DNA of 64,000 bases from Pyrinomonadaceae bacterium (GTDB taxonomy: Bacteria > Acidobacteriota > Blastocatellia > Pyrinomonadales > Pyrinomonadaceae). This document shows, in pieces, positions 4,203-58,111 of the stretch (position 1 is its first letter; each line of letters starts with the position of its first letter). The stretch is taken from assembly GCA_965214585.1 (NCBI GenBank), contig OZ243957.1, forward strand, positions 567,331 through 631,330, in the 5' to 3' direction. The position numbers and the translations under genes were made by a program. Under the pieces are notes generated by a model, which saw only the letters and a list, made by a program, of their open reading frames with translations, ran no database searches and was not told where the DNA came from.

Positions 4203-5387
4203 TTTGACGGATACGGCGTGATATTTTCTGAGAATTTCCAAAGTCTTTTCAATCGGAATCGCTTCGATTTTATTGCCGTCGCGTCCCGTCATTGTTGATG
4301 CTCGAAACAGCGAATTGTAGATCGCTTCTTCCGTTGCTTCCACAGCGGCGAGAAAAAGCGGCGACATCAAATCGTTTGCCAGAACTCTCGTTTGACGGAC
4401 ATTTTCGCCCGCGCGAATGCGGTTTTCCGTCGCCGTGCTGAACGCGATGACATAATCGCCGCTGCCGTTCGTCGCAGGCGAACCCGTCCGCGCCAAGCCT
4501 AAAATTGCTCGTGCCGCAAGCCGTTCGAGATTTCGCGCGTCGAGAGGCGCATCTGTTGCCACAACAATAATTATCGAGCCGTCCGCTTTGTCGCTAACAT
4601 CTTTTGAGATATTTTTACCGCCCGATTCAATTTGTTCTTTCAAATAATACTTCCCTAATTCGCGTCCGACAGGCGCACCGTTGATCGTCAAAACGCCGCC
4701 GAAATTCGTCTGCACCAAAACGCCGATTGTGTAACCGCCCGCCGATTGCGGCACGATGCGCGAAGACGTGCCGATTCCGCCTTTGAACCCGAACGCGATT
4801 GTTCCCGTTCCCGCGCCAACCGAACCTTCTTCAACCGCGCCCGATTTTGCCGATTTTATCGCTTCAAAAACTTCTTTTTGTCCAACGTGCCGCCCGCGTA
4901 TGTCATTTAGAAAACCGTCATTCGTTTCCGCCACAATCGGATTTACCGAGCGCACATTTTCATTTCCCGAAAGCCCAAGCATATATTCAATTAAAGCGTC
5001 GGCAACGCGCGGAACATTCAGCGTATTCGTCAGCAAAATCGGCGTTTCGATCTCGCCGAGTTCCTTAACCTGCGTCGAACCCACGAGTTTCCCGAAACCG
5101 TTTCCGACGAAAATCGCCGCCGGAACTTTTTTTTGGAAAAGATTTTCACCGTGCGGCAAAATCGCGGTAATGCCCGTTCTAATGTTGTCGCCTTTTATCA
5201 GTGTCGAATGTCCGACTTTCACGCCGTCAACGTCCGTAATCGCATTGAGTTTTCCCGTCGGCAAAATTCCGACCTCAACGCCCAAATCTCTGGCTCGCGG
5301 GCGTTCTTTTTCCGTTTGAGCGAAAATCTGCGTCATAAAAATCAGAATTGAAAAAACTGCGATAAATTTTTGAAGAAAATCAGCCAT
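4200..5387 (-). CDS. DmpA/OAT-family (peptidase S58) L-aminopeptidase/D-Ala-esterase-like protein, secreted
   Basis: 395 aa; signal peptide; S58/DmpA-like Gly-rich motifs (SVGAGTGTIAFGFKGGIGTSSR). Confidence 0.7.
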   Translation of the reverse strand: MADFLQKFIAVFSILIFMTQIFAQTEKERPRARDLGVEVGILPTGKLNAITDVDGVKVGHSTLIKGDNIRTGITAILPHGENLFQKKVPAAIFVGNGFGKLVGSTQVKELGEIETPILLTNTLNVPRVADALIEYMLGLSGNENVRSVNPIVAETNDGFLNDIRGRHVGQKEVFEAIKSAKSGAVEEGSVGAGTGTIAFGFKGGIGTSSRIVPQSAGGYTIGVLVQTNFGGVLTINGAPVGRELGKYYLKEQIESGGKNISKDVSDKADGSIIIVVATDAPLDARNLERLAARAILGLARTGSPATNGSGDYVIAFSTATENRIRAGENVRQTRVLANDLMSPLFLAAVEATEEAIYNSLFRASTMTGRDGNKIEAIPIEKTLEILRKYHAVSVK

Positions 5388-5669
5388 AAGTTATTTTTAA
5401 ATGTATCCGATTTAGAAGTTATGAGAATTAAAATAAAGACAGTTTCGGAATAGCTGATAAATTATAGATAAAGGATGATAACTGCACCCGTTTTATCTAT
5501 CAGTTTTCATCTTTCATCTATAATCTATTCCGAAATAAATTCCTCGACTGCGTAACTTCTGAGATTATAAAAACTGCTTTGAAATATTTCCTATAATTCT
5601 AAGCCAAGTTACAATGTTTATCGAAAGATATTTTCTTGAAGAATCGGTTAGCAACAAATTAAACTTTTT

Positions 5670-5744
5670 GTCAGTAGCGTCGGCGTGAGCCGATGCGCTC
5701 GTCGCGTCCGCATTGACGCATCGGCTCACGCCGACGCTACTGAC
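5670..5744. repeat. palindromic repeat family A copy 1 (28-bp perfect inverted arms gtcagtagcgtcggcgtgagccgatgcg, 19-bp loop)
   Basis: exact reverse-complement arms at 5670-5697 and 5717-5744; related copies at 34986-35063 and 55521-55615. Confidence 0.8.
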
Positions 5745-5777
5745 TTGCACACTATTTCTTAAAATAAAGGGAAACAT

Positions 5778-7145
5778 TTGAACGAAATCAAACCGACAGT
5801 AATGAAATTCGGTGGAACGAGCGTCAAAGACGCGGCGGCTTTTGCGCGTGTCGCCGGGATCGTCGCGGGGCAAAAAGACTTTTCGCCCGTTGTCGTAACT
5901 TCCGCGATGGCAAGATTTACGGACGCTTTGCTGAACGCCTTTGAAACGGCAAAAAAAGGCGACTCAAGCGTTGCGTTTTCTTCTTTGACGGAACATTTCG
6001 ACAGGCACGAAAAAGTTTCAGACGAACTTCTCGAAGAAACGCAAAAAACCGCTTTTGAAATAGAATTAAGACTTGCCAGAGGCGAACTTTCCGATCTGCT
6101 TTTGCGCGTTGAACGCCGAAGTTTGCCGCTTTCGATGCTTAAAGACGCGATTGTTTCCTACGGCGAACAGCTATCTTCGCATCTTTTGGCGGAAGTCTGT
6201 AAGGTAAATAGAATAAACGCCAGACAAATGGACGCACGGCGTTTGATCGTAACGGACGAAGAATACGGCGCGGCGCATCCCGTTTGGAGCGAAACGGAAA
6301 AGTTAATAAATTTAGAATTGGAAAATTTGATCGCGGACGGCGAAGTTCCCGTTCTCGGCGGTTTTATCGCGGCGAGCAGAACAGGCGAAACGACGACTTT
6401 GGGGCGCGGCGGTTCGGATTATTCGGCGGCACTAATCGGCGCGGCACTTCGCGCAAGGGAAATTCAAATTTGGACGGACGTAACCGGCGTTTTGACGTGC
6501 GATCCGCGAATTTGCCCCGAAGCCGAAACTTTGGACGTGCTTTCCTACGAAGAAGCGGCGGAACTCGCCTATTTCGGCGCGAAAGTTCTGCATCCCAAGA
6601 CGATAAAACCCGCCGTTGATTACGAAATCCCCGTCCGCGTCTGCAACTCCAATCAGCCGCACGAAAAAGGCACGATGATCTTAGCCGAAAGCAAAGTTTC
6701 GCCGAATAAGATCAAATCAATCGCGCACAAAACGGGAATTACGATTGTGCGAATCTCGTCGGCGCGGATGCTCGGCTCTTACGGTTTTATGAGCGCGTTA
6801 TTCCAGATTTTTGAACGCTTCCGCACCGTGATTGACGTAATTTCAACGTCCGAAGTTTCCGTCGCTTTAACGCTTGACAACACCGATTCGCTTGACAAAA
6901 TAATCATCGAATTAGAACGGCTCGGCGAAACCGAAGTCGAGCATAACAACGCCGTCATCTGCGTCGTCGGCGAAGGTCTGCGCTCGACTTCCGGCTTGGC
7001 TTCAAAACTTTTTTCGACCATCGAAGACATCCCGATTTCGCTTATCTCCCACGGCGCGTCGAGCGTAAATTTAACTTTTGTCGTCAAGGAAGAAAAAGTT
7101 GCGGACGTAATAAAAAGGCTGCATAATAAATTTTTTAATGAATAA
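5778..7145 (+). CDS. lysC: aspartate kinase
   Basis: 455 aa; VMKFGGTSV N-terminal kinase motif, C-terminal ACT domains; TTG start with AAGGGA upstream. Confidence 0.85.
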   Translation: MNEIKPTVMKFGGTSVKDAAAFARVAGIVAGQKDFSPVVVTSAMARFTDALLNAFETAKKGDSSVAFSSLTEHFDRHEKVSDELLEETQKTAFEIELRLARGELSDLLLRVERRSLPLSMLKDAIVSYGEQLSSHLLAEVCKVNRINARQMDARRLIVTDEEYGAAHPVWSETEKLINLELENLIADGEVPVLGGFIAASRTGETTTLGRGGSDYSAALIGAALRAREIQIWTDVTGVLTCDPRICPEAETLDVLSYEEAAELAYFGAKVLHPKTIKPAVDYEIPVRVCNSNQPHEKGTMILAESKVSPNKIKSIAHKTGITIVRISSARMLGSYGFMSALFQIFERFRTVIDVISTSEVSVALTLDNTDSLDKIIIELERLGETEVEHNNAVICVVGEGLRSTSGLASKLFSTIEDIPISLISHGASSVNLTFVVKEEKVADVIKRLHNKFFNE

Positions 7146-49431: not shown

Positions 49432-49645
49432 AATTTTCTCCTTACAAATGTTTTGAACCTTCTAAAATTTGAAAAACAAATAAAGTTTATCTGAAAATCG
49501 CAGAGATTTCAAATATTTTCGCTTATTTTAACATTTTGTCCAACCCGACATTTCACAAAATCGTGCCGAAAACGATTTTGATAAAAAAACGCAATCTCGT
49601 AAAAGATTGAGTTTTTCTCATTCATTGCTGAATTATCTCGATCTA

Positions 49646-50524
49646 TTAAACCGACGCGCCGGAAACGACTTCGATGATTTCTTTAGTAATCGCCGCTTGT
49701 CTGATGCGGTTCATATTCAGCGTCAGATCGTCAATCAATTCGCCCGCGTTTTTTGATGCCGCGTCCATCGCCGTCATACGCGAGCCTTGTTCGGACGCGA
49801 CGGATTCGAGCATTGCGCGGTAAATCTGCGTTTCGACCTGTTTTGGCAGGAGTTTGCCGAAAATCTCGGCGGGCGGCTGTTCGTAAATATATTCGGCTTC
49901 CGCCGCGTTTTCCGCTTGAGTTTCTTCCTGGGCGGCGATTGCCGGAATCGGCAAAAGCTGTTCGATTCTGATGTATTGCGTCATCACGGTTTTGAATTCG
50001 GTGAAAACGATGAAAACCTTGTCAACGCTCGCGTCTTCGGTAAATGTTTTGATAATTTTTCGCGCAACTTCCATCGCGTCCGAATGCTCCGCGCGACCCG
50101 ATCCGGTTAAATTTACATATTCTTCGACGAATTCCATCTCGCGCCGCTTAAAAAAATCGCGCCCTTTGCGTCCGACGGGAATCATTTCCGTTTGTTTACC
50201 GGAATTTTCCTTTAGAAAAGTCTGCGTCGCTTTCATCAGATTGGCGTTAAAACCGCCACACAAACCTTTGTCCGCGCTGACCAAAACGATCAGATATTTT
50301 TCGTCGCCGCGTTCGTCGAGCAGCGGATGCGAAAATTCGCCGCCGATCTTCGCGCTCAGACTGCCGAGAACTTCGCTCATTTTCACGGCAAACGGACGCG
50401 CCGCCGTTACGCTGTCCTGCGCTCTTTTTAATTTCGCCGCCGCGACCATTTTCATCGCTTTGGTGATCTGCTGTGTGTTTTTGACGGACTTAATCCGCCT
50501 TCGCATATCTAATAAACTTGGCAT
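49646..50524 (-). CDS. atpG: F0F1 ATP synthase gamma subunit
   Basis: 292 aa; N-terminal MPSLLDMRRRIKSVKNTQQITKAMKMVAAAKLKRAQ and C-terminal helix typical of AtpG. Confidence 0.9.
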   Translation of the reverse strand: MPSLLDMRRRIKSVKNTQQITKAMKMVAAAKLKRAQDSVTAARPFAVKMSEVLGSLSAKIGGEFSHPLLDERGDEKYLIVLVSADKGLCGGFNANLMKATQTFLKENSGKQTEMIPVGRKGRDFFKRREMEFVEEYVNLTGSGRAEHSDAMEVARKIIKTFTEDASVDKVFIVFTEFKTVMTQYIRIEQLLPIPAIAAQEETQAENAAEAEYIYEQPPAEIFGKLLPKQVETQIYRAMLESVASEQGSRMTAMDAASKNAGELIDDLTLNMNRIRQAAITKEIIEVVSGASV

Positions 50525-50530
50525 ATTTCT

Positions 50531-50917
50531 TTATAATTTCCGATAAGGCACAAAAACTTTTGACAACATCGGAAAATGTTTTTTATTTAATGTAACTAAA
50601 ACGACATCTTCCGCTTCCACCGTCGCCGCGATTATTGCGTCGGCTAAACCTACGCCGTGACTTTTGAAATAATCCCGCCGAAATAATCCGCCATTTATTG
50701 CAATCTCAACCGTGATTGGAATAACCTTTAAGTTTTTAACGAACTCGTCCAAAACTTTTCACTCTTTATTTTCACGAACTCCAGAATATAATTCGGCGAC
50801 TGTTACGGAAGATACAAGCGGAATTTCAATCAGATTTTCTAAATAGTTGACGGCTTCGATACGATTTCGCAAGTAATCAATCAAAACATCCGTATCAAGC
50901 AAAAGAATATCTTCCAT
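50531..50917 (-). pseudogene. PIN-domain toxin gene interrupted by an in-frame TGA at codon 53
   Basis: MEDILLLDTDVLIDYL...VRENKE-TGA-KVLDEFVKNLKV...GLADAIIAATVEAE; both halves in the same frame (50917-50761 = 156 nt, a multiple of 3). Confidence 0.6.
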
Positions 50918-51183
50918 TATTCTTCATTCCATTGCGAAAATCTGTCAAATTCTTTTCTGATTTGCGTAAAATCCGGCAAATCTTCTCGGTCTTTCCAGAT
51001 TCCTTTCGCTTGTTTCAGACTTTTCAGCCACTTTTGTTTTTCAACTTCCTTTGCGCTTTCTTCACCGATCAGTTTTTCAACCGCTTCCTGCAAAAGATCA
51101 TCCTCAGTTTTACCCGTGCGCCGCGAAAGTTCGCGCAAAAGTTCGGTTTGTGAATCAGTTAGATTGATTTGTGCCGTTGTCAT
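50917..51183 (-). CDS. ribbon-helix-helix (CopG-like) antitoxin
   Basis: 88 aa; INLTDSQTELLRELSRRTGKTEDDLLQEAVEKLI RHH fold signature; stop overlaps PIN start by 1 nt. Confidence 0.6.
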   Translation of the reverse strand: MTTAQINLTDSQTELLRELSRRTGKTEDDLLQEAVEKLIGEESAKEVEKQKWLKSLKQAKGIWKDREDLPDFTQIRKEFDRFSQWNEE

Positions 51184-51188
51184 TTTCT

Positions 51189-51569
51189 TTATTTAACAAG
51201 TGCCTGCGGATAATTCGGACTTTCGGGATTAACCGTTACCGAACGCCTCGACGGATTTAAAACCAAATCCATATCTTCCATTGGAACTGAACCTAAAAGC
51301 ACTTCGTTTCCCAAAACCAACGCGCCGACAAAACAGGAACGGTTTTCAAATCTGACACGAACCGGACCGACATACGGAACTAAATGTTTATCTCCGGTGG
51401 CGGTTATTATCTCGCGCTTTTCCGCTTCTTCAAGATTTAACTGAATTTGTATGTGCTTGGGAATACAGAGCATCAACGCGCCCGTGTCCGCCAGCGAATT
51501 TACCGTAATCGGCTTGAGATCGGTTTCTCTCGGATTTCCCAATTCGATTTCAGCATATACATAACCCAT
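51189..51569 (-). CDS. retropepsin-like (clan AA) aspartic protease
   Basis: 126 aa; catalytic ADTGA motif; located between atpA and TA pair. Confidence 0.65.
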   Translation of the reverse strand: MGYVYAEIELGNPRETDLKPITVNSLADTGALMLCIPKHIQIQLNLEEAEKREIITATGDKHLVPYVGPVRVRFENRSCFVGALVLGNEVLLGSVPMEDMDLVLNPSRRSVTVNPESPNYPQALVK

Positions 51570-51649
51570 AATTTTTGCGAAAAATTAAACTAAAAACTAA
51601 AAAAAGTAGAGCATCTTGCTTAAACTTTTCATCTTTAGTTTCTCACTAT

Positions 51650-53248
51650 TTAAGCACTTGCCATAACCGCTTCATTTTCAGACATTTCCGGCGAACTTGC
51701 GACGATTGCCGCATTCGTTTCTTCGGCGGTTTCGGCTTTATTCCAGCGAGTCGCTTTGAAATCTTCAATTGCTTCACGCAAAGACGCTTTCAAATCGTCG
51801 TCAATTGATTTTTTGTCGCGCAAAGTCTGCAAAACGCCCGGATGCGAATTTTTTATGTAATCCAGCATTTCCGATTCAAAGCGTTTCAAATCTTCGACCT
51901 CGACATCATCAACCAAACCGTTTGTCGCCGACCAGATTATCAGAACCTGATTTTCAACCTCCATCGGCTGATATTGTCCCTGCTTCAAAATCTCGGTCAT
52001 ACGTTTCCCGCGTTCGAGTTGATTTTGTGTCGCTTTGTCCAAATCCGAACCGAATTGAGCAAATGCGGCAAGTTCGCGGTATTGCGCCAAATCAATTCGC
52101 AGAGTTCCTGCAACTTGTTTCATTGCTTTAACTTGCGCCGCGCCGCCAACCCGCGAAACCGAGTTTCCGACATTGATCGCCGGACGCACGCCGGAGTTGA
52201 AAAGGTCGGCTTCGAGAAAGATTTGACCGTCGGTGATCGAGATCACATTGGTCGGAATATACGCCGAAATGTCGCCCGCCTGCGTTTCGATGATCGGCAG
52301 AGAAGTCAAACTTCCGCCGCCTCTCGCGTCCGACATTTTCGCGGCGCGTTCCAAAAGGCGCGAGTGCAGATAAAAAACGTCGCCCGGATACGCTTCGCGC
52401 CCCGGCGGTCTTCTCAAAAGCAGGGAAATCTCCCGGTAAGCCGCCGCCTGTTTTGATAAATCGTCGTAAATTGTCAGCGCGTGTCTGCCGTTATCGCGGA
52501 AATATTCGCCGATGGCGACTCCCGCATACGGCGCGAGAAACTGCATCGCCGCCGGATCGGAAGCCGTCGCGGAAACGACAATTGTGTAATCCATCGCGCC
52601 GTTGTCTTCGAGTTTTTTGACAACCTGCGCCACCGTCGAAGCCTTCTGCCCGATGGCGACGTAAACGCAGATCACGTCTTTTCCTTTCTGGTTAATGATC
52701 GCGTCAATCGCCACGGCGGTTTTTCCCGTCTGGCGGTCGCCAATGATAAGTTCCCTCTGTCCGCGACCAATCGGCACCATCGCGTCAATCGCTTTGAGTC
52801 CGGTTTGAAGCGGTTCGCTCACCGGCTGGCGGTCAATAATTCCGGGCGCGATTCTTTCAATCGGATTATAATCGTCGGTGATGATCTCGCCTTTTCCGTC
52901 AATCGGATTTCCGAGCGCGTCAACCACGCGACCAACCATCGCGTCGCCGACGGGAACGCTCATAATGCGGCGCGTGCGCTTAACTTCGTCGCCTTCTTTG
53001 ATCTTCTGAAAATCTCCGAAAAGCACCGCGCCGACCTTATCTTCTTCAAGGTTGAGCGCGAGTCCGCGCACGTCGAACGGAAATTCGAGCAGTTCGCCCG
53101 CCATAACCTTTTCGAGTCCGTGAATTTCGGCAATTCCGTCGCCCACTTTGATAACCGTCCCGACTTCCGCAACGGTCATACTCGCGTCAAAATTCTCGAT
53201 CTGTGAACGAATAATTTCGTTTATTTCGTTAGCTTTTATCGCTTCCAT
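51650..53248 (-). CDS. atpA: F0F1 ATP synthase alpha subunit
   Basis: 532 aa; P-loop GDRQTGKTA. Confidence 0.9.
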
Positions 53249-53322: not shown

Positions 53323-53865
53323 TTAACCATTTACTAATTTATATTTAAGTTCTTCTAATTTTGTTTTCACAGAGCCGTCGTAAACGGTTGAACCGATACG
53401 GGTTACGACTCCGCCGATAATAGTTTCGTCAATTTCGTAATTCAAGCGCACGTCCTTTCCGGTCATTTTATTTAAACTGGTCTGAAATTCCGCTTTCTGC
53501 GTTTCGGAAAGCGGACGCGCGGAAATGATCTTTGCGGACGTGATGCCGCTTCGCTCTTCTAAAACTCCGTCCAGACGCTCGTTTATTTCGCTGATTTGGC
53601 TCAAACGGTCATTTTTCAGCAGAACGCGCAAAAAGTTTGCGGTGGTTTTCGTCGGCTTTGTTCTGGAGATCAAACTTTCCAGAACTTTAACTTTATTTTC
53701 CTGTGCAATCGAGGGATTGCCGAATGCGGTTTGCAGATCGGCGTTTGAATTTATCATCTCTTCCCAAGATTTCAGTTCCGCTTTGACCGAATCGGTTTCG
53801 CCGGATTTCATAACGACATCGGCAAGCGCGTGGGCATAGCGGCGGGCAACTGTTTCAACGCTCAT
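53323..53865 (-). CDS. atpH: F0F1 ATP synthase delta subunit
   Basis: 180 aa; OSCP/delta pattern (ARRYAHALADV). Confidence 0.8.
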   Translation of the reverse strand: MSVETVARRYAHALADVVMKSGETDSVKAELKSWEEMINSNADLQTAFGNPSIAQENKVKVLESLISRTKPTKTTANFLRVLLKNDRLSQISEINERLDGVLEERSGITSAKIISARPLSETQKAEFQTSLNKMTGKDVRLNYEIDETIIGGVVTRIGSTVYDGSVKTKLEELKYKLVNG

Positions 53866-53866
53866 T

Positions 53867-54454
53867 TTAGCTTAAACCTCCGATTGATTGAATATTGTTT
53901 CGGACAAGCTGCGCGTCTTTTTGTTCGTTCATTTGCCCTCTGATCTTTTCTTCGGCAAGGCGCACGCTTTCTTCGGCTGAGAAACGGCGAAGTTTCATCT
54001 GCACCTGCTTGTTTTTGCGCTCGACTTCGCTTTTCGCCTGTTCGCGCATCTTCGTCGTTTGAAACGCGGTTTGTTCGAGAATTCTCGCTTTTTCGGCTTC
54101 GGCTTCGGCTTTCGCGTTTTCGTGAATCTGCCTGCTTTCAACGTCCAAATTTGAAAGCTGGGTTTCCGCCGCGCCCAGTTTTTCAAGTGCGGCTTGTTTT
54201 TCTTCTTCCGCCTTTATCAACTCGGCGCGAATCATTTCGCGTTTTGCTTTAAATGCTTTTGACAGAGGTTTTTTCAAAAGATAGATCAATATGAGGACGA
54301 AAACCGCCAAATTGAAAAACCGCCACGCTTCAAAACCCGGATAATTCGCGTAAACGTCCCAAAAATGAACGGATTTCCCCCACACCGAATCGGGATCAGC
54401 CGCTTCACCGCCGGCTGCGGCAAACAGTAAAAAATTAAATAAAAAAGCTGTCAT
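53867..54454 (-). CDS. atpF: F0F1 ATP synthase subunit b
   Basis: 195 aa; single N-terminal TM then long charged helix. Confidence 0.7.
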   Translation of the reverse strand: MTAFLFNFLLFAAAGGEAADPDSVWGKSVHFWDVYANYPGFEAWRFFNLAVFVLILIYLLKKPLSKAFKAKREMIRAELIKAEEEKQAALEKLGAAETQLSNLDVESRQIHENAKAEAEAEKARILEQTAFQTTKMREQAKSEVERKNKQVQMKLRRFSAEESVRLAEEKIRGQMNEQKDAQLVRNNIQSIGGLS

Positions 54455-54467
54455 ATAAATACGTATG

Positions 54468-54676
54468 GTTAATTGTTGATAGTTAATTGTTCATTGTTAA
54501 AAAGCCAATTATCGAAATCTTTATAAAAGTAAACGGCTCGTTCAGGTTAAGAAAAACAATGAACAATTAACTATCAACAATGAACGAATTACAATTAACT
54601 ATCAACAATGAACGAATTACAATTAACTATCAACAATGAACGAATTACAATTAACTATCAACAATGAACGAATTTA
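54468..54676. repeat. 28-bp tandem direct repeat (aattacaattaactatcaacaatgaacg x ~4, 54555-54676) with an inverted partial copy at 54468-54500
   Basis: four head-to-tail identical units read directly; no unique spacers. Confidence 0.85.
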
Positions 54677-54688
54677 GAATAAATTTCA

Positions 54689-55141
54689 TCAAGCCGTTTT
54701 CAGTATATTCTGACTGATCTTATCAGCCATAATTTTCGCTTCGTCGGCGATCTGTGCTTCGGCTTTAGTGGTTTGCGCTTGTAATTCGGCAAGTTCCGCC
54801 GCCGTTCTCTGTTCGACTTCGGATTTTACGCGGCTGATCTCCGCTTCTCTCTGCAAAACGGCTTCGCGGCGTTCTCTCTCGATCAGATCGTAACTTTCCG
54901 AACGCGCTTCGAGCAGTTTCTGATTGTAAAGTTCCTGCTTTTCCTCAACGTCGCGCAGAATTTCTTCCGACTCGGTAAACCTGCCGCCGCTGCTTTTCTC
55001 GCGCTCTTCGATAACGCGATTGATCGGGCGGAAAAATGTGCGGTTCAAAATCCAGATCATCAGCAAAATCAGCGCGATATGTATAAATATCGTGCCGTCC
55101 GGCATAATCGAAACGCTTTCCTGAAAGGCAAACAAAACCAT
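54689..55141 (-). CDS. F0F1 ATP synthase subunit b' (second b-type subunit)
   Basis: 150 aa; N-terminal TM then charged helix; alternative start MPDGT at 55105 has an AGGAAA SD. Confidence 0.6.
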   Translation of the reverse strand: MVLFAFQESVSIMPDGTIFIHIALILLMIWILNRTFFRPINRVIEEREKSSGGRFTESEEILRDVEEKQELYNQKLLEARSESYDLIERERREAVLQREAEISRVKSEVEQRTAAELAELQAQTTKAEAQIADEAKIMADKISQNILKTA

Positions 55142-55345: not shown

Positions 55346-55615
55346 AGTTTTGCGAGCGCAGAACAACCCTTCCAAATCTGCTAATTTGATTATCCTAACT
55401 TTTTTCACTTGATCTTGAATAGATCATCACCAATAACTGCTCAAGATAATACAGATTGCAGGTCAGGAAGGGTTGTTCTACGCCCGCTTTTTGCAAAAGT
55501 GAAATTGCAATAAAATGATTTCGTCGCGTCCGTATTTACGCATCGGCTCACGCCGAAGCTGCCGACAAGAAACGCCGAAGCTGCCGACAAGAAACGTCGA
55601 AACTGCTGATAAGAG
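55346..55615. repeat. repeat family E copy 2 (55346-55488, inverted orientation) plus degenerate family A half-copy with 22-bp tandem duplication (55521-55615)
   Basis: aagttttgcgagcgcagaacaacccttcc...ggaagggttgttctacgcccgc; cgcatcggctcacgccgaagctgccgacaagaaac x2. Confidence 0.7.
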
Positions 55616-55695: not shown

Positions 55696-55795
55696 GGAGG
55701 CGCATCTCGTCTGGTGGCGGGCGCGGTCTTCAAAACCGTCTGCGAGATTGCGAGAGCAAATCTTGGGTGGGTTCGATTCCCACACGCCTCCGCCA
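55696..55795 (+). tRNA. selC: tRNA-Sec (anticodon TCA), selC candidate
   Basis: 8-bp acceptor GGAGGCGC/cGCCTCC. 6-bp D-stem CTCGTC/GGCGGG with wobble pairs, as in E. coli selC. Anticodon loop cTTCAAAa. Long 7-bp variable arm. T-loop GGTTCGATTCC; discriminator G then CCA. Confidence 0.7.
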
Positions 55796-55796
55796 C

Positions 55797-55835
55797 GCCG
55801 ATTTTGGATTTGGGATTTGGGATTTGGGATTTGTT
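55797..55835. repeat. tandem heptamer repeat gatttgg x4
   Basis: gattttggatttgggatttgggatttgggatttg. Confidence 0.8.
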
Positions 55836-55857: not shown

Positions 55858-56247
55858 ATGACGCAGGAGGAGATGAAAACGCGGACGAAAAAATTTGCGT
55901 TACGGGTGATTAAGTTGGTTGAGAGTTTGCCGAAAACTAAGACGGCGGATGTTATTGGTCGTCAACTTTTACGCAGCGGAACTTCGGTTGGGGCGAATTA
56001 TCGGGCGGCTTGTCGCGGAAAATCAACGGCGGATTTTATTTCAAAATTGAGCATTGTTGAAGAAGAAGCGGACGAATCAATGTATTGGATGGAACTTTTA
56101 ATCGAGGCGGAAATTGTTAAGGAAACTTTGTTGTCAAATCTTTTGGATGAAGCAAATCAGATTCTTTCAATAATCGTTTCAACAATCAAAACTTCCAAAG
56201 AAAAACAAAATCCCGAATCCCGAATCCCAAATCCTAAATCGTTATGA
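55858..56247 (+). CDS. four-helix-bundle protein (23S rRNA intervening-sequence protein family)
   Basis: 129 aa; characteristic LLRSGTSVGANYRAA and EEADESMYWMELL motifs. Confidence 0.7.
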   Translation: MTQEEMKTRTKKFALRVIKLVESLPKTKTADVIGRQLLRSGTSVGANYRAACRGKSTADFISKLSIVEEEADESMYWMELLIEAEIVKETLLSNLLDEANQILSIIVSTIKTSKEKQNPESRIPNPKSL

Positions 56248-57410: not shown

Positions 57411-57746
57411 ATGAACACGATAACTTCAAGCACGGAAATTACGTTTACAAAAACAAATGCGGGAGTTTTGCGAATCGGAAAAACGCGCGTTTCGCTCGAT
57501 TCGGTGATAATCGCTTTTAATTCGGGAGCAACGCCCGAACAGATTATTCAGGATTTTGACACGCTGACGCTGGCGGAAATTTACGCGGCGATTAGCTATT
57601 ATTTGAATAATCGTGAAGAAGTAAATTCTTATCTGGCAAAGCGGGAAAAACGGAATAAAGAACTTCGCAAAATCAACGACGAGCGGTTTAATCATCAAGG
57701 ATTACGCACAAGACTCTTAGCGCGTCGCCGCAAAGTTGGTAAATAA
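57411..57746 (+). CDS. DUF433 antitoxin-like protein
   Basis: 111 aa; VLRIGKTRVSLDSVIIAFNSGATPEQIIQDFDTLTLAEIYAAISYY matches DUF433. Confidence 0.65.
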   Translation: MNTITSSTEITFTKTNAGVLRIGKTRVSLDSVIIAFNSGATPEQIIQDFDTLTLAEIYAAISYYLNNREEVNSYLAKREKRNKELRKINDERFNHQGLRTRLLARRRKVGK

Positions 57747-57757
57747 GTTTTTGGACT

Positions 57758-58111
57758 ATGAAATTTCTTTCCGACGAAGATTTCAATAATCATATTGTGC
57801 GCGGTTTATTTCGGCATTTTCCACATCTTGATTTGATCAGAGTTCAAGATACCGAATTGATGGAAAAACACGATAAAGAAATTCTGGCTTGGGCGGGAAA
57901 AGAAAATCGTCTGATTTTAACTCACGATTTTGCAACAATACTTGATTTTGCTTATGAAAGAATCAGTAAAAATTTACCGATGGCGGGCGTGGTCGCTGTT
58001 CCTCAAAATTTGTCAATAGGCAAAGCAATAAATGAACTTTCCATACTAATCGAATTTAGCTTGGAAAATGAATGGGAAAGCCAAGTTGTTTTTATTCCAT
58101 TAAAAACATAA
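57758..58111 (+). CDS. DUF5615 (PIN-like) toxin partner of DUF433
   Basis: 117 aa; adjacent to DUF433 in canonical order; LILTHDFATILDFA pattern. Confidence 0.6.
   Translation: MKFLSDEDFNNHIVRGLFRHFPHLDLIRVQDTELMEKHDKEILAWAGKENRLILTHDFATILDFAYERISKNLPMAGVVAVPQNLSIGKAINELSILIEFSLENEWESQVVFIPLKT

Follow-up and report, generated by a model that had tools for sequence, protein, structure and literature searches.

Prokaryotes have small single-domain retropepsin-like proteases, and of the COG5550-type pSNCAPs it has been written that 'little is known' (Llorens et al. 2009, PMC2642776). One homologue, slr7088 of Synechocystis PCC 6803, has been classed as a type III accessory peptidase of 'cluster 11' (Shah et al. 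2019, PMC6546367); its knockout left interference normal and lowered CRISPR RNA (crRNA) 1.24-fold (PMC6546367). A literature search on the TIGR03698 family in connection with toxin-antitoxin modules or operons, and on toxin-antitoxin genes inserted into atp operons, yielded nothing of relevance. What, then, is a gene of this family doing between two genes of an ATP synthase? The case described here comes from a 64,000-nt stretch of contig OZ243957.1 of a soil bacterium of the Pyrinomonadaceae, Acidobacteriota (the window; all coordinates are positions in it, WIN stands for it in comparisons, and L-numbers denote the related loci and contigs compared). In its atp operon, atpA (alpha) and atpG (gamma) are separated by a retropepsin-like protease gene, a vapB-like antitoxin gene and a vapC toxin pseudogene. 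The reading that best joins the evidence, to which we give a probability of roughly three in four, is that of an ancestral split operon with an old polymorphic slot, occupied here by a protease under selection and a decaying VapBC pair and transcribed by read-through. Every component comes from a known family; the notable part is the operon-lodging pattern.

The insert and the two genes that flank it are, in the order of the operon:

51650..53248, minus strand: atpA, alpha subunit, 532 aa (PF00006, PF00306, PF02874; Pfam E=4.5e-86)
51570..51649, minus strand: AT-rich spacer of 80 nt with the inverted heptamer repeat AAACTAA / TTAGTTT (from its fold)
51189..51569, minus strand: retropepsin-like single-domain aspartic protease gene, 126 aa, intact (TIGR03698 / COG5550 type; TIGR03698 match)
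50917..51183, minus strand: vapB-like antitoxin gene, 88 aa, probable ribbon-helix-helix (RHH), intact (weak profile matches and position)
50531..50917, minus strand: vapC (PIN) pseudogene, 128 codons, with an in-frame TGA at 50759-50761, codon 53 (PF01850 E=7.8e-15 when read through the stop)
49646..50524, minus strand: atpG, gamma subunit, last atp gene of the operon (PF00231 E=5.7e-97)

The open reading frames (ORFs) all lie where a preliminary description of this DNA had placed them, and the same-strand insert of 1.1 kb that it reported measures 1125 nt from the atpA stop to the atpG start, with Pfam matches on both sides. Its premise that alpha and gamma are usually adjacent is true of most related genomes, and the protease, vapB and vapC are accessory genes. 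All three are oriented as the operon and follow one another almost without gaps: 80 nt separate alpha from the protease, 5 nt the protease from vapB and 6 nt vapC from atpG, while vapB and vapC overlap by 1 nt.

How widespread and how old is this arrangement? A scan at the species level, with one genome per species and atpG as query, gave 80 loci, the closest of which belong to Pyrinomonadaceae and other Blastocatellia. In these 80 loci, each from a species representative, atpG has no protease, VapB or VapC gene nearby; the carriers are metagenomic relatives, found on metagenomic contigs, and at least 11 related contigs have the protease at the alpha-gamma junction. The junction exists in the following states:

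alpha, protease, gamma: L083-085, L092-094, L096-098, L113 (protease 66-80% identical to that of the window)
alpha, protease, VapB, intact VapC, gamma: L174, L175
alpha, VapB, VapC, gamma, without protease: L178, L179
hairpin, VapB, VapC, gamma, with the sequence further upstream missing: L176, L177
alpha, HicB, HicA, gamma: L005, L006
alpha, HicB, protease, gamma: L095
empty or with a hairpin only: L001-004 and all more distant relatives

In L082 the protease and VapB are followed by a remnant of VapC. Within one genus-level clade the junction serves as a polymorphic slot of long standing, whose small accessory genes are co-oriented with the operon and mostly have no room for a promoter of their own. 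Trees of atpA plus atpG, and of atpG alone, place all carriers in that clade with 100% bootstrap, and the atpA of the window is 86-91% identical to that of the closest related loci. A single intergenic junction can cycle through at least three unrelated cassette types. An assembly chimera was considered and ruled out, as the arrangement recurs in the independent assemblies L081, L174 and L175.

The age of the insert can be read from its synonymous divergence (dS), for which we used Nei-Gojobori estimates on the same genome pairs for the insert and the flanking genes, leaving out the vapB rows of L178. The dS of the protease is 0.35-1.04, as against 0.33-1.03 for atpG and atpA. Between the window and L082 the values for protease, atpG and atpA are 0.77, 0.82 and 0.83; between L082 and L093 they are 0.35, 0.42 and 0.33, and between L085 and L096 they are 1.02, 0.99 and 0.82. 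The toxin-antitoxin genes give a similar picture, with 1.03 for vapB, 1.05 for vapC and 1.16 for atpG between the window and L176, and 1.18, 1.00 and 1.17 between L174 and L176. Because the dS of the insert mostly tracks that of the flanking atp genes, the cassettes have been resident since before the carriers diverged. The preliminary description had proposed to compare this junction in relatives, on the view that the same insertion in all of them would mark an ancestral arrangement; the carrier contigs and their matching dS do speak in part for an ancestral one, and it is polymorphic, so fixation in all relatives does not hold. An essential operon, tuned in its stoichiometry, can harbour passengers for a long time, the synonymous divergence between carriers being about 1. 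The cassettes are old, and their divergence keeps pace with that of the flanking atp genes; in the mechanism that we propose, different lineages have lost them, let them decay or exchanged them in different ways, and the exchange could plausibly go by homologous recombination between the conserved atpA and atpG sequences on either side. A small sign of such exchange may be seen in the second codon of atpG, which is CCA or CCT in three vapBC carriers (the window, L082 and L174) and GCA in L083, in L093 (the near sister to L082) and in L176, which also carries vapBC.

The protease itself is a well-preserved gene. Against NCBIfam it matches TIGR03698 ('clan AA aspartic protease') with 69.6 bits, above the curated cutoff of 57.35, and the ADTGA motif named in the preliminary description is the catalytic motif A27-D28-T29-G30-A31, whose D28 and G30 are invariant among 40 homologues. 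The pattern D[TS]G[AS] is present in 70 of the 77 full-length copies from the fetched loci. An AlphaFold (AF2) model has a mean predicted local confidence (pLDDT) of 83.4 and a predicted template-modelling score (pTM) of 0.77, and its top Foldseek matches are the FIV, HIV-1 and HTLV-1 proteases and the RVP domain of Ddi1 (probability 1.0, TM-score 0.58-0.73), with APRc (5c9f) also among the structural matches. The protein has neither a signal peptide nor a membrane segment, and it is presumably a cytoplasmic homodimeric enzyme. Its dN/dS (the ratio of nonsynonymous to synonymous divergence) is 0.06-0.19, that of atpG 0.07-0.17. The protease is thus intact, and purifying selection acts on it with about the strength that it has on atpG: the gene is kept for a function of its own. 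A sequence search of the PDB returned no relative for the protease or VapB. Carriage by phage and membership in a known defence system were also looked at and found unsupported, since none of the three proteins matches PADLOC, the protease has no match in PHROGs, and a scan of viral contigs with the protease family alignment found no copy.

The toxin tells the opposite story. When the two parts of the vapC frame are joined, PF01850 is matched with 56 bits (cutoff 23.6), the acidic positions D8, E42 and D93 together with N111 are invariant in an alignment with 17 homologues, and the closest homologues carry a VapC-family annotation and are all about 128 aa long, the full-length set having 128 aa. 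Codon 53, which is Arg in 16 of the 17 full-length homologues, is TGA in the window (CGA to TGA), as the preliminary description had noted in calling the PIN toxin broken by a stop, and the nearly invariant Gly at position 50 is Asn. The stop divides the active-site residues between two fragments. It is no sequencing error, because an independent assembly, L081, about 98% identical in vapC, shares it. An alternative genetic code is ruled out too, TGA being an ordinary stop that ends 17 of the 53 long ORFs in the window. Thus, VapC is a pseudogene by nonsense mutation. In L082 a second, independent inactivation has deleted about 85 N-terminal codons of vapC and left only the last 40 or so, so that the toxin is dispensable in this lineage. 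The relatives therefore offer a natural series of toxin-antitoxin decay, from the intact pair through a nonsense mutation and a mostly deleted toxin to complete absence. L081 shows two further oddities, an atpA called as two ORFs (142 and 390 aa; 4332-5929) and an extra 1-nt deletion in vapC; in this 99%-identical relative both probably stem from erroneous indels of a long-read assembly with low coverage. Look-ups of the exact atpG and protease sequences of the window gave no match, and the 99%-identical P0001 with its contig, L081, stood in for them.

And the antitoxin? Its profile matches all stay below threshold (PF07704 E=1.5e-3; RelB-like NF048017 E=1.8e-3; 'CopG family' PDB 7by2 E=0.076, the last a weak, full-length match from a profile of six VapB orthologues), and the sequence pattern of a strand followed by two helices is compatible with RHH. 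Its position is what one expects of an antitoxin: the PIN gene follows it directly, with an ATG that overlaps the stop of vapB by 1 nt, and the orthologues of vapB precede an intact VapC in L174-L177 and L179. The label of RHH antitoxin given earlier is weakly backed by the profiles. VapB, still intact, may be an orphan antitoxin that is of use or else a remnant in slow decay. The VapBC pair of the window is a decaying remnant that can no longer enforce retention of the insert; the earlier suggestion of stabilisation by addiction falls, for addiction cannot hold the insert now that VapC is a pseudogene.

How are these genes expressed? Scans for promoters and terminators by simple consensus matching detected neither a terminator-like site in the stretch from atpA to atpG nor a promoter-like site in the 5-nt gap between protease and vapB that could give vapBC a promoter of its own, under autoregulation. 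With no terminator-like site, no clear atpG promoter and minimal gaps, the likeliest arrangement is that protease, vapB and vapC are transcribed as part of the atp mRNA: the three genes would be read through from the atp promoter, and expression of atpG would pass through the insert. Co-transcription with the atp genes had been raised before, and orientation, tiny gaps and the lack of a terminator-like site all agree with it as a prediction. A probable operon terminator lies downstream of atpG, and the scan missed it because its stem is poor in GC:

49583..49618 (approximate), minus strand: hairpin followed by a U-run after atpG, probable operon terminator (predicted fold)

Upstream of the protease gene, the 80-nt spacer (51570-51649) folds with -18.4 kcal/mol (z=-1.9) and contains AAACTAA in 2.4 tandem copies. 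It is the local, AT-rich version of a hairpin found in relatives with an empty alpha-gamma junction, where the spacer measures 8-117 nt and can mostly be folded into a hairpin of tandem heptamers and their inverted copies; comparable heptamer hairpins occur at this junction in L001, L003, L004, L008, L011, L014, L020, L082, L092-094, L174 and L176. Such a hairpin could tune the ratio of alpha to gamma expression. In the empty junctions of Pyrinomonadaceae the element is usually about 80-120 nt long, with three to four tandem heptamers and inverted copies, and the heptamer differs in nearly every genome (GTTTCAG, GTGATGA, GTCCCAG, GTGGTAA), the predicted folds being strong (z=-5.6 in L093). We take these elements to resemble the STRR heptamer repeats of cyanobacteria.

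The boundaries of the vapBC part carry a short direct repeat:

51184..51192, minus strand: direct repeat ATAAAGAAA (9 nt), left copy, at the protease stop and vapB start
50526..50534, minus strand: direct repeat ATAAAGAAA (9 nt), right copy, at the vapC stop and atpG start

L174 and L082 show a similar duplication of the nucleotides that precede the start codon. This is a hint that the vapBC cassette entered exactly at the atpG start, with a motif that is common in the window (the 9-mer occurs 9 times on its two strands).

Several observations weigh against the picture of an old slot whose genes depend on read-through from the atp promoter. Within the 3' end of vapB (50948-50919, minus strand) is the region's best sigma-70-like hexamer pair (TTGACA, 18 nt, AAGAAT; 10 of 12 matches), which could be a secondary promoter, created by the insertion, that drives atpG separately; the predicted co-transcription itself is drawn from gene spacing and simple consensus scans. 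Across the protease family, 11 of 22 distinct contexts are co-oriented on both sides, a count obtained by crude ORF calling on metagenomic contigs. The dS of vapB exceeds that of atpG in some pairs (1.68 against 0.82 between the window and L082; 2.6 against 0.98 between the window and L174), which may be the noise of an 88-codon gene or may reflect cassette exchange. Inside the clade the junction states are patchy and the trees poorly resolved, with many nodes below 50% bootstrap. On the sequences compared, ancient gain followed by repeated loss is inseparable from exchange by homologous recombination among relatives.

Are the three genes perhaps one system, the protease being a functional third part of toxin-antitoxin modules that, for example, degrades the antitoxin? 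The trio occurs in the window, L081, L082, L174 and L175, and elsewhere the protease adjoins parts of other modules: HicB-like genes (L095, L130), a MazF-like gene (L128) and an Rv0078B-like antitoxin gene (L099). A possible AbrB-like ORF beside the protease in L132 was recognised by inspection of the sequence and has no Pfam match. Yet at the very same junction the protease is found without VapBC (L083, L085, L093, L096, L113) and VapBC without the protease (L178, L179), and because each occurs without the other they form no obligate trio. The search for further trios proposed earlier did return intact ones, in L174 and L175 and at this same junction; the idea of an obligate unit is what it did not bear out. 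Moreover, most protease copies sit alone between housekeeping genes with no toxin-antitoxin partner, the partners come from unrelated toxin-antitoxin families, which better fits shared insertion slots, VapBC is intact without the protease in L178, and in the window the protease is still selected after the death of VapC. We regard a third-component role as unlikely.

Is the protease instead recruited to the biology of the ATP synthase, for instance to subunit processing or quality control? Its stable position between alpha and gamma across a dS of about 1, its low dN/dS and its invariant catalytic motif could be taken that way, as could its close translational coupling to atpG in many loci (gaps of 4-6 nt). 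The rest of the family points elsewhere. It has more than 4,500 matches; among the best 120, identity is nowhere below 65% and the length is nearly always 126 aa. Copies lie between hisH and hisA (L088-091, L114; hisH is upstream in L105) and between the E1alpha and E1beta genes of 2-oxoacid dehydrogenases (12 loci, with E1alpha the upstream neighbour in 19); others lie downstream of ilvD and of purL, or beside genes of the DUF29 and DUF433 types. On Synechocystis plasmids a homologue, slr7088 in PCC 6803, stands between cmr4 and cmr3 of a type III-B cassette. In these contexts lie members with 65-72% identity; the copies in E1 operons are about 40% identical to the protease of the window, and Slr7088 is 50% identical. 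Since the same family occurs in his, E1 and cmr operons, its presence here tells more about the persistence of a gene family than about ATP synthase biology, and the recurrence in unrelated operons argues against a pathway-specific role for small prokaryotic retropepsins. In addition, the close clade relatives L001-004 have normal atp genes and no protease, and the junction also takes HicBA and VapBC, which have no link to the ATP synthase. A dedicated role in this enzyme is very unlikely.

The view that a mobile module of protease, RHH and PIN genes was inserted recently and is held in place by addiction is largely refuted and just as hard to sustain. The three genes are contiguous and co-oriented, an intact trio exists in L174 and L175, and the 9-nt repeat surrounds the vapBC part. 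Against this stand the VapC pseudogene, present in two independent assemblies, the dS of all three genes, which to relatives is about 0.8-1.0 like that of the flanking atp genes and speaks for an old residency, and the separate occurrence of protease and VapBC at this junction. Neither integrase or transposase genes nor attC-like sites accompany the insert, and its gaps (5, -1 and 6 nt) are too short to contain such sites, which also sets aside integron cassettes or a CALIN. Finally, although a selenocysteine tRNA (tRNA-Sec) gene lies 5 kb away (55696-55795) and a small hairpin starts just after the UGA, it is scarcely conceivable that the vapC stop is decoded, as selenocysteine or by read-through, and the toxin still made: the codon replaces a conserved Arg or Lys and not a Cys, the hairpin does not stand out from shuffled sequence (z=-1.5; 17 of 200 shuffles fold equally well), G50, nearly invariant elsewhere, has gone too, and the L082 orthologue is mostly deleted.

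That leaves the old, polymorphic slot in an operon which is itself ancestrally split. The ORF calls give the minus-strand order, from 55141 down to 49646, of b', b, delta, alpha, spacer, protease, vapB, vapC pseudogene and gamma, and the genes upstream of alpha are:

54689..55141, minus strand: atpF', b' subunit, first gene of the split operon (PF00430 E=5e-11)
53867..54454, minus strand: atpF, b subunit (PF00430 E=1.7e-17)
53323..53865, minus strand: atpH, delta/OSCP subunit (PF00213 E=9e-50)

The preliminary description had counted as anomalous that no atpD or atpC follows atpG and that no atpB or atpE precedes b'. The absence is real, and a search of the whole 64-kb window found neither a beta P-loop nor a c-subunit motif. 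Among loci with enough flanking sequence, an atpD-like gene follows atpG in none of 23 from Blastocatellia as against all 49 from other Acidobacteriota and outgroups. The order b'-b-delta-alpha-gamma is kept in the Blastocatellia and Pyrinomonadaceae loci, usually with a VanZ gene next after gamma. Because the split arrangement is normal for Blastocatellia, the missing genes are no part of the anomaly, and annotators should not treat a split atp operon in this group as one.

The operon of relatives has other passengers. Uma2-family genes (PF05685) lie between atpH and atpA in L082 (1811-2287) and L174 (1165-1722), and another stands between cmr3 and cas10 on a plasmid of Synechocystis PCC 7338 (L173, 4544-5098). 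Uma2 genes thus show an operon-lodging habit like that of the protease, sometimes in the same operons. In L006 a 121-aa ORF (5627-5992), glyoxalase-like by sequence inspection only, is a further passenger between atpH and atpA. Within the window, the unusually long b'-b spacer of 234 bp contains a perfect tandem repeat of four 28-bp units (54563-54674). Just upstream of the operon and divergent from it lies the tRNA-Sec gene (anticodon TCA; 55696-55795, plus strand; Rfam RF01852, 70.9 bits, with ARAGORN in agreement), preceded by a 22-bp repeat in three copies (55550-55614); given this gene, the organism probably makes selenoproteins. Soon after it comes a four-helix-bundle gene of the TIGR02436 / PF05635 '23S rRNA IVS protein' type (55858-56247, plus strand), bracketed by two heptamer arrays, one of about five copies of GATTTGG (55800-55833) and one, at the 3' end of the gene, that is its inverse complement (56208-56243); together they resemble the stem found around ORFs of this type in rRNA intervening sequences. 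A few kb from the operon, two small ORFs (57411-57746 and 57758-58111, plus strand) form a possible toxin-antitoxin-like module, their DUF433-like and PIN-like labels coming from sequence inspection, with no supporting NCBIfam match for either.

Could the protease belong to a broader kind of gene? We tentatively suggest, as an idea that is possible and that we would sooner doubt than defend, that TIGR03698/COG5550 genes are 'operon lodgers', a class of genes without promoters to which Uma2 and some toxin-antitoxin pairs might also belong. If this were true, lodgers would be small accessory or selfish genes long wedged between tightly coupled genes of operons that are essential or strongly expressed, such as atp, his, E1 and cmr; they would use the transcription of the operon, their imprecise deletion would be costly, and the CRISPR association would be one case of a general habit. 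In a stronger variant the protease may act on antitoxins or on other products of cassettes lodged with it. The recurrent operon positions are in any case a testable lead for an uncharacterised family of small retropepsins.

How, then, does the locus compare with the systems already described? With the TIGR03698 / COG5550 single-domain clan AA peptidases the protease shares its length of about 126 aa, the D-T-G motif, the retropepsin fold and a score above the cutoff, and there is no difference at the level of sequence. APRc of Rickettsia, RimB and the Rlo proteases of Pseudomonas have the same fold; they are membrane-anchored, secreted or part of a rimABK operon, whereas the protease of the window belongs to a different sequence family and lacks a signal or membrane segment. 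Like type II VapBC systems (PIN plus RHH/CopG), the pair of the window has the antitoxin before the toxin, a 1-nt overlap and the residues D8, E42, D93 and N111; unlike them, it has a dead toxin (R53 to stop), only 5 nt upstream of vapB, and a place inside an essential operon and not in an island. HicBA (L005, L006; between alpha and gamma) and Uma2 (L082, L174; between delta and alpha) are likewise co-oriented and tightly packed passengers of the operon in relatives, but they are unrelated protein families and absent from the operon of the window. Slr7088, encoded on the plasmid pSYSA of Synechocystis PCC 6803, is alike in being 50% identical over its full length and lodged in a conserved operon. 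It differs in that its gene is opposite in strand to the cmr genes and has D-S-E where the catalytic D-T/S-G is expected (L172, 4001-4381). Judged from this motif, Slr7088 may be catalytically inactive, which would bear on how its weak knockout phenotype is read. No cas gene is found among the genes called around the atp operon of the window, whose neighbours are VanZ, Band_7, DprA and the four-helix-bundle gene, and given the atp, his and E1 contexts the CRISPR association of the family may be incidental. Since these peptidases recur inside unrelated operons, it is prudent to be wary of the published interpretation of their genes as effectors of type III CRISPR systems.

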